DNA of 20,586 nt from a virus. Taxonomy: Duplodnaviria > Heunggongvirae > Uroviricota > Caudoviricetes. The notes beneath the pieces were generated by a model. It was not told the DNA's origin and ran no database searches. It saw only the letters and a program-made list of their open reading frames with translations. This document shows, piece by piece, positions 4,009 to 4,380 of this stretch. Made by a program: the position numbers and the translations under genes. The stretch spans positions 1-20,586 of the IMG/VR virus record IMGVR_UViG_2563366976_000012, one strand, 5' to 3'. Within the stretch, counting starts at the first letter, position 1, and every line of letters begins with the position of its first letter.

Positions 4009-4380
4009 CTATATGTAACAATCAATTTCTAAAGATACCCCCAACATTGCCAGACAACCGTCAATAAACCCTTCAGCTTTCTGCAGTCTGATAACAACCT
4101 GATTAAGTGATATCCCCAGTTTTACCCCCAACACCCGTAATGTAACCCCATACACATAATACATTTCCAGTAATTCGTATTGATACGGTTCCTTTTTCTT
4201 AAGAACTGTCATCGCAGAGCTAATGATCAGGCCATCGTCATCGCTACATTGCGGGCGGGATTTTACTTTCGAAGGAATTAATCCCTTAAAACCTGCAGCA
4301 ACAGATGACCATTCCACATCCTCGTGATTATTTGCCACCCATGCCCCTCAACGTTCAAGAACCATTTGAATATCACGCAT
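4009..4380 (-). pseudogene. Antiterminator Q (DLP12 QuuD/YbcQ type) interrupted by an in-frame TGA at codon 11
   Basis: Minus-sense reading from ATG at 4378-4380 (SD GGAG 8 nt upstream): [51 protein letters not shown]..., matching recalled QuuD [45 protein letters not shown] where the TGA replaces TGG (Trp). The frame reopens at GTG 4336-4338. Confidence 0.6.

Follow-up and report, generated by a model that had tools for sequence, protein, structure and literature searches.

The window, by which we mean the whole 20,586-nt stretch of DNA analysed, is a lambdoid prophage with its integrase at 19300-20586 and with the gene order methylase-LexA-like-RusA-KilA-N-DUF968-Q, as in its relatives. The gene under study, a Q antiterminator of the Q21/Q933W/QuuD family, lies on the minus strand at 4009-4380 and comprises 123 codons, the eleventh of which is TGA; it is effectively a pseudogene. 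Its native translation start (4378-4391, minus strand) consists of a GGAG motif at 4391-4388, a 7-nt spacer and an ATG at 4380-4378, and the stop codon of the upstream DUF968/HNH gene (4398-5393, minus strand) is found 17 nt before this ATG. Reading along the minus strand, ten codons (4380-4351) precede the TGA (4350-4348), which is followed by GGG GCA TGG and then by a GTG at 4338-4336. Both the reading of the sequence and the list of open reading frames indicate that the Q frame stays open past the TGA down to 4009. Since the frame is unbroken on either side of the TGA, and conserved there, chance is not at issue: the stop is real, in frame, and differs from the ancestral TGG (Trp11) by one transition, at base 4348, within a TTGGGGGGCA run. 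The in-frame opal codon after a good Shine-Dalgarno (SD) sequence and ATG, on which the original prediction was built, is present as described, at codon 11. The remnant of the ancestral G6 run (codons 11-13) reads GAGGGG (4344-4349, minus strand); with 5 nt between it and the GTG, it forms an SD-like element. From this GTG a residual 109-codon reading frame remains (4009-4338, minus strand), which corresponds to WP_001555115.1 and lacks all of helix H1. In mEp460_4F5 (LR595868.1; locus L014, 5688-6677), it is the DUF968/HNH gene upstream of Q that carries the label 'Phage antitermination protein Q', a likely mis-annotation that could propagate.

With codon 11 read as Trp, the 123-aa product aligns with positions 1-118 of the 118 positions of the Pfam model PF06530 (Phage_antitermQ), with an E value of 1.3e-47 and a score of 161 bits vs a curated cut-off of 26. 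This Pfam family has been assigned to the Q21/Q933W family (bioRxiv 10.1101/651190). The frame of the present gene is not uninterrupted, and the TGA at codon 11 therefore makes it a disrupted member, or pseudogene, of the family. The type member of PF06530, phage 21 Q (21Q; structures 6P18, 6P19, 6P1A-C, 6JNX and 6JNY), shares the LE-WGAW motif with the window protein and is its best fold match. The sequence match to the structures 6p18 and 6jnx has an E value of 5.6e-10, residues 8-15 (LERWGAWV) being aligned with 21Q residues 20-27 (LELWGAWV), so that W11 corresponds to W23 of 21Q. The two genes also occupy the same place in a lambdoid genome, preceded by the DUF968 and RusA genes and followed by the late region. 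They differ in length (123 aa here vs 162 aa), are only about 22-25% identical overall, and the gene in the window is broken at codon 11. The AlphaFold model of Q (pTM 0.72, with low confidence at residues 39-47) contains helices at 3-16 (H1), 26-29, 49-63, 65-76, 81-88 and 92-112, and the top 11 Foldseek matches to it are all Q21 chains (probability 1.00, TM 0.43-0.59). The arrangement that characterizes 21Q, namely H1 on a sigma-R4-like helix-turn-helix domain with a flexible H1-H2-H3 connector, is found in this model.

The predicted QuuD-type identity is borne out by the Pfam, structural and Foldseek matches, and the relationship to QuuD itself (YbcQ, from the cryptic prophage DLP12 of E. 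coli K-12) extends to an identical 14-residue N-terminal sequence; related hits are annotated quuD in RefSeq. Among QuuD and the related antiterminator Q family alleles, the N-terminal part of roughly 50 codons is common at the DNA level, with divergence after about window position 4230. The window differs from QuuD in that its C-terminal DNA-binding half and the adjacent promoter segment belong to another allele. None of the quuD-annotated matches in the complete genomes searched carries a pseudogene flag. DLP12 has otherwise decayed but retains an intact QuuD; the window shows the reverse, a prophage that looks largely intact and a broken Q.

An alignment with 20 homologues of 59-69% identity (from Escherichia, Klebsiella, Salmonella, Yersinia, Photorhabdus, Serratia and others) shows that M1-R2-D3-I4-Q5 and L8-E9-R10-W11-G12-x-W14 are invariant or nearly so. 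As expected from the claim that relatives have Trp at this codon, position 11 is W in 18 of the 20 and Y or F in the other two. In the AlphaFold model Trp11 falls within helix H1, and no part of the Q family is more highly conserved than this helix. All 20 homologues start at the Met equivalent to M1 or further upstream, and none begins at the position of the downstream GTG, which had been considered as a possible natural start of functional Q proteins.

The consequences of losing H1 can be estimated from 21Q. In that protein, H1 binds the sigma-R4-like domain H3-H6 in the same manner as the anti-sigma factor RseA binds sigma-R4, and the ring around the nascent RNA is formed by L1 (the H1-H2 linker), H2 and L2 (the H2-H3 linker) (PMC6606751; bioRxiv 10.1101/651190). 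H1 also touches the second Q protomer (bioRxiv 10.1101/651190, legend of Fig. S2). By analogy, a protein comprising residues 15-123 would have a ring tethered at one end only and would expose the hydrophobic face of its DNA-binding domain. Antitermination should fail as a result of this unanchored ring and exposed face.

The ancestral state of the codon is apparent from near-identical prophages. The window is 100% identical to E. coli KTE51 scaffold KB732675.1 over 10,338 nt, a 1445-N gap beginning in the scaffold just past window position 1. The prophage of the complete genome 23CRST038, whose copy adjoins mlrA/yohO, is 99.98% identical to the window, with four differences in 20,586 nt: at 3122, 4348 and 12092, together with one extra C in the C-run at 12779. 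At 4348, 23CRST038 reads TGG, and the Q annotated there in RefSeq is an intact protein of 123 aa (WP_001204814.1). DEC9B and MS7163 likewise carry TGG at codon 11, and the sole difference between MS7163 and the window over 431 nt is G to A at 4348. The comparisons with MS7163 and 23CRST038 are thus consistent with the proposed origin of the stop in a single G-to-A change. At sites 3122 and 12092, the window has the allele common to other relatives, the odd allele being that of 23CRST038; consequently, the TGA is the only derived substitution in the window. Outside Q as well, the 23CRST038 copy looks like a largely intact prophage.

Some further features were recorded in the course of these comparisons. 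The private C-to-T of 23CRST038 at window 12092 (L003 24092) falls in a putative operator, an inverted repeat (TAGATGT ... CAATCTA) that lies between the cro-like gene and the cI-like one; the window has the common allele there. The C-run right after the stop of the cI-like repressor (12771-12786) has eight C in the window, seven in 23CRST038 and six in mEp460. At 9170-10887 (minus strand), there is a tandem pair of Rha/Ash-family genes (293 and 279 aa, with nucleotide identity of about 75% between them), each accompanied by its own C4 antisense RNA (9782-9869; 10648-10735) and isrK (9894-9970; 10757-10833), as identified with Rfam. On the basis of this gene content, the segment is a duplicated P1/P7 immI-like c4/antirepressor module in a lambdoid prophage.

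The frequency of the two alleles was assessed with a 40-mer centred on the variant base and designed in such a way that all of its 28-nt seeds span it. The TGG form is present in 244 of 5426 complete E. coli genomes and in 93 IMG/VR contigs. The TGA form is present in none of the 5426 genomes and in none of the IMG/VR contigs, and a search for the TGA form among GTDB representatives and JGI metagenome contigs also returned zero matches. An exact look-up of the 109-aa GTG-started product showed it to be on record under WP_001555115.1 / ELD98946.1 ('Q protein [E. coli KTE51]'), with about 10-24 contigs carrying it vs at least 1000 for intact Q, so that roughly one copy in a hundred, or fewer, has the broken allele. 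This look-up detects only disruptions in the first 42 nt and is therefore biased towards the G6 run. The TGA was found in at least seven accessions across NCBI, ENA and Logan (L005, L006, L008 and L010-L013). Five of them, GCA_000351465.1, ERZ27246549 (with 8 similar contigs), SRR641901, GCA_008917245.1 and ERR14962486, match the window base for base over 2.5-10.3 kb. The TGA is likewise carried by ERZ27305637, with 6 mismatches, and by ERZ28638581, whose 110 mismatches fall in the upstream genes. A private error, as suggested by the empty TGA 40-mer scans, was dropped from consideration after the 109-aa look-up had found several TGA assemblies. At the codon 4348-4350, for which the original prediction had called for verification in raw reads, other separately assembled accessions show TGA, not TGG.

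The two divergent TGA loci, L010 and L013, whose nearest complete genomes are only 98.4% and 99.6% identical, share a synonymous C-to-T change at Q nucleotide 151 (window 4230) that occurs in none of 43 TGG copies of the same Q allele in IMG/VR. Independent recurrence of the TGA in these loci is the less simple reading, the shared rare change at 4230 favouring common descent with recombination, or chimeric assembly. The simplest account of the sequences would be one origin of the TGA, then one further mutation and recombination of the flanks, with chimeric metagenome assembly as the alternative source of the divergent flanks.

A 1-bp deletion in the same TTGGGGGGCA run (G5) is carried by L004 (GCA_900448625.1) and L007 on another prophage backbone and is clearly a disabling event independent of the TGA. 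A mutational hotspot or phase switch at the run was considered because the TGA, the G5 deletion and an N-run all fall there; it was rejected as a general property, since the G5 and G7 versions are both missing from the 5426 complete genomes, vs 244 with G6. The frequent variation of tract length among close relatives that marks a phase-variable homopolymer was not seen, G5 being found only in L004 and L007, and a 6-nt tract is short for such a switch. Frameshifted 116-aa variants (P0002, P0004) map to a second G-run in Q, at about 4035-4045 on the minus strand (codons 113-115, TTGGGGGTA); at least some of them may be long-read homopolymer errors.

Downstream of Q, a WYL-like gene of 205 aa (phrog_8498; 3316-3933, minus strand) separates it from the candidate late promoter. 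The gene is present in all 22 IMG/VR loci with the same Q allele, and its place between Q and the candidate promoter is unusual for a cargo gene; a PADLOC search with three cargo proteins, this one included, gave no matches. Its SD is buried in a 15-bp perfect hairpin at 3935-3971 (minus strand; AUAACCUCCUGAUGA / UCAUUGGGAGGUUAU), which has a z-score of -3.5, with 0 of 200 shuffles folding as well, and looks like an element of translational control or a weak terminator.

The candidate late promoter PR' (3220-3275, minus strand) was located from sequence, in an allele-specific segment that ends at the junction 3217/3216. It includes an extended -10 element, TGTTATAAC, at 3242-3234 and a second -10-like hexamer, TATTAG, at 3225-3220, a candidate sigma-dependent pause element (both on the minus strand). 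Beyond it lie an intrinsic terminator at 3162-3186 (minus strand), the candidate tR', with the structure AAACCCGC-CACUGA-GCGGGUUU followed by a U-tract (fold z -2.7), and a second terminator-like hairpin with a T-tract at 3098-3128 (minus strand), obtained from the terminator scan. We infer that the -10 elements, the pause-like site and the terminators form the layout expected of a late promoter with its tR', and the best candidate promoter would accordingly be placed about 0.8 kb downstream of Q (about 3270-3234); a promoter within the 75-nt spacer between Q and the WYL-like gene is a possible alternative. A half-site of TGAGCA has been described for 21Q (PMC6606751). The search for a Q-binding element with this half-site gave a single 5-of-6 look-alike, TGAGCT at 3253-3248, with no second repeat. 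Over 1200-4450 on both strands, the Q gene included, 12 terminator-like sites were counted vs 2.8 +/- 1.7 expected from shuffles.

Comparison of 22 IMG/VR loci having the same Q allele with 27 having a different C-terminal allele delimits an allele-specific module from about 4230 to about 3220, which comprises the DNA-binding half of Q, the WYL-like gene and the next intergenic segment. The block from 3216 to about 3005, which holds the 3186-3162 terminator, is common to different Q alleles. Three unrelated upstream segments (the window, QuuD-like and mEp460 types), each associated with its own C-terminal allele of Q, join this common block at the same base, and each of them, as judged by eye, has a -10-like hexamer and a second -10-like element 10-20 nt later. 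This arrangement looks like a modular cassette for Q/late-promoter specificity with a common tR'. At the 3216/3217 junction (L014 mEp460_4F5, L099 and L100), the common block reads GTTAAGAGTGGTTACTTCGCC... and continues with the terminator.

Further along the minus strand follow three prophage tRNA genes with CAT, TCG and TCT anticodons (1714-1963), none of which is an opal suppressor, and the 5' part of a nanS-p-type SASA esterase gene (1-1221, with its ATG at 1221), the first recognizable gene of the late region. On this reading, the 65-aa gene, the AraC-like gene, the three tRNAs and nanS-p are situated behind the terminators, and their phage-driven expression would need Q. Independent promoters are possible, for instance ATGATA-16-TATAAT at 2768-2741 before the AraC-like gene. 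The bearing of Q on the induced expression of the nanS-p, tRNA and cargo genes, raised in the original prediction, would thus concern the genes just named and not the WYL-like gene, which is probably not Q-dependent because it sits upstream of the candidate late promoter. Between the tRNA genes and nanS-p, Rfam identifies an STnc100 match at 1430-1638 (minus strand, 131.7 bits) and AsxR at 1374-1426 (plus strand, exactly at the gathering score), in a segment that occurs in only 14% of the loci with the same Q allele. STnc100 as a Q-controlled PR'-tR' transcript was rejected on account of this low linkage, given that the segment to about 3100 is always linked.

Collectively, the best explanation is a recent, genuine TGG-to-TGA nonsense change at Trp11 of Q that very probably leaves the KTE51-lineage prophage late-gene defective, as a case of ordinary decay. 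The disabling change is derived, rare and lineage-restricted while intact orthologues are common, which is what a pseudogene arising by decay should display. The inactivation appears to be recent, since the remaining 109 codons are undamaged and the rest of the prophage is largely intact, as seen in the 23CRST038 copy. The data show the mutation itself, derived and rare and present in independent assemblies, together with the family of the protein and the conservation of the segment lost. That antitermination no longer works, where the late promoter lies and how the prophage behaves, we infer from the sequence and the structures of 21Q, through the following steps. Translation from the native ATG would stop after 10 residues, and the only sizeable product left would be the 109-aa protein from GTG 4338. 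Without H1, this protein would form no closed, anchored ring for threading of the RNA, and RNA polymerase leaving the late promoter would halt at the terminators. The lysis, structural and nanS-p genes would then stay off after induction, and such a late-defective prophage would represent an early step of prophage decay. The decay of regulatory genes in other prophages follows the same pattern of a rare, derived, lineage-restricted disabling change in an essential lytic gene, with the 1-bp G-run deletion on another backbone as a second event here. The only difference from ordinary decay is the replacement of Trp by opal, the one combination that natural readthrough would repair exactly. Of the three outcomes put forward in the original prediction, the evidence favours the late-defective one; nothing marks readthrough or reinitiation as a designed route of expression, and both may occur at a low level.

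Among the rival explanations, the one that survives best, while still unlikely, is a leaky attenuator, in which the UGA is read at low frequency by Trp-tRNA(Trp) and wild-type Q is made at a few percent or less. Such an allele, with the same small likelihood, would lower and delay late gene expression without abolishing it, perhaps in a manner coupled to growth conditions that alter readthrough. Of the stop codons of E. coli, UGA leaks most, and the near-cognate tRNA that reads it inserts Trp. Because the residue replaced by the UGA was Trp, each readthrough event restores exactly the wild-type protein, and background decoding by tRNA-Trp would supply a trace of it. A precedent is offered by coliphage Q-beta, where insertion of Trp at a UGA extends the coat protein to the A1 protein; in that phage, which cannot do without the extended protein, the UGA is a fixed feature. 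The present case is similar in that a phage gene in E. coli contains an in-frame UGA readable by tRNA(Trp) at a few percent. Unlike in Q-beta, the UGA is missing from all relatives examined, and nothing suggests selection for the stop. Moreover, the RF2 of K-12 is unusually weak, so that natural isolates should terminate at UGA more efficiently, which weakens any argument from a readthrough value obtained in K-12. That value, from a reporter, amounts to about 2% at 37 C, against 4% at 25 C, and depends on physiology (PMC10570021).

The persistence of the allele, evident from its presence in several accessions, with the extra synonymous change at 4230 and with different flanks, speaks in favour of a leaky gene; however, a null allele that is neutral or beneficial in a prophage would show equal persistence. 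The same local sequence carries the stop in 0 of 244 complete genomes and 0 of 93 IMG/VR contigs, and neither a stimulatory RNA structure nor a suppressor tRNA accompanies it. Folding of 4400-4280, the region around the stop, gives a z-score of +0.57, with 147 of 200 shuffles folding at least as well, and the window's only tRNAs, with CAT, TCG and TCT anticodons, do not include an opal suppressor. Selenocysteine insertion or a structured recoding signal, and a prophage-borne suppressor tRNA, were therefore both set aside, neither having been found. The features of programmed recoding are absent: the stop is not conserved in relatives and is associated with neither stimulatory structure nor suppressor tRNA. 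A more elaborate and slightly less probable version would have the opal-for-Trp change act as a self-correcting throttle that keeps authentic Q at about 0.1-4% of normal, while the 109-aa fragment could compete at the Q site. If this were true, the late genes would fire only when UGA readthrough is raised (low temperature, slow growth) or after long induction, and the lineage would combine strongly reduced spontaneous lysis with residual mobility.

Considerably less likely than leaky decoding is a functional short isoform, in which reinitiation or fresh initiation at GTG 4338 would yield a 109-aa Q that antiterminates or regulates at the Q-binding site. A distance of 9 nt separates the stop from the GTG, a gap short enough for terminating ribosomes to plausibly reinitiate, and 5 nt separate the G-rich run from the GTG. 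The SD-like GAGGGG pairs with the anti-SD at -7.6 kcal/mol in the TGA form (-9.3 kcal/mol in the wild type), more strongly than the SD of Q itself (-6.4 kcal/mol). As a result of this strong SD-like element at good spacing, the 109-aa fragment is probably made, with its DNA-binding domain kept and the C-terminal helix-turn-helix region undamaged; its activity in antitermination is unlikely by analogy with 21Q. The segment lost is the family's most conserved one, 0 of 20 diverse homologues start at this point, and the Pfam model begins at residue 1. H1 is integral to the 21Q fold, where it anchors the ring and makes contact with the second protomer (PMC6606751; bioRxiv 10.1101/651190). A compatible Q acting in trans from another prophage in the same cell is a further possible source of activity.

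Least likely of all, with hardly any probability left to it, is a sequencing or assembly artefact at the G-rich homopolymer of the KTE51 draft, the living strain really having TGG. It draws on the location of the TGA site within a G6 run, the TGG of the near-identical prophage in the complete 23CRST038 genome, the lack of the TGA in any of the 5426 complete E. coli genomes searched and an N-run exactly at the TGA site in metagenome scaffold L009; yet homopolymer errors are usually changes in length, not G-to-A substitutions, and the stop is not an artefact because the same G-to-A occurs in separately assembled data sets from three archives, with identical flanks in several accessions and slightly different flanks in two more.

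Returning to the late-gene-defective prophage as the favoured explanation, the finding amounts to routine prophage decay with no new mechanism, and the truncated product is already in public databases. The sole mildly interesting twist is an opal codon at a Trp position that readthrough repairs exactly, so that the gene may be leaky rather than dead. For annotation, WP_001555115.1 ('antiterminator Q family protein', 109 aa) would have to be regarded as a truncated remnant and not as a natural short form. The KTE51-lineage prophage should be scored as late-gene defective although it looks complete, and the phage pathway should not be assumed to induce its nanS-p esterase, lysis and virion genes. 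The pair formed by KTE51 (TGA) and 23CRST038 (TGG), with four differences in 20.6 kb, would provide a natural experiment on the effects of Q loss on spontaneous lysis and host fitness.
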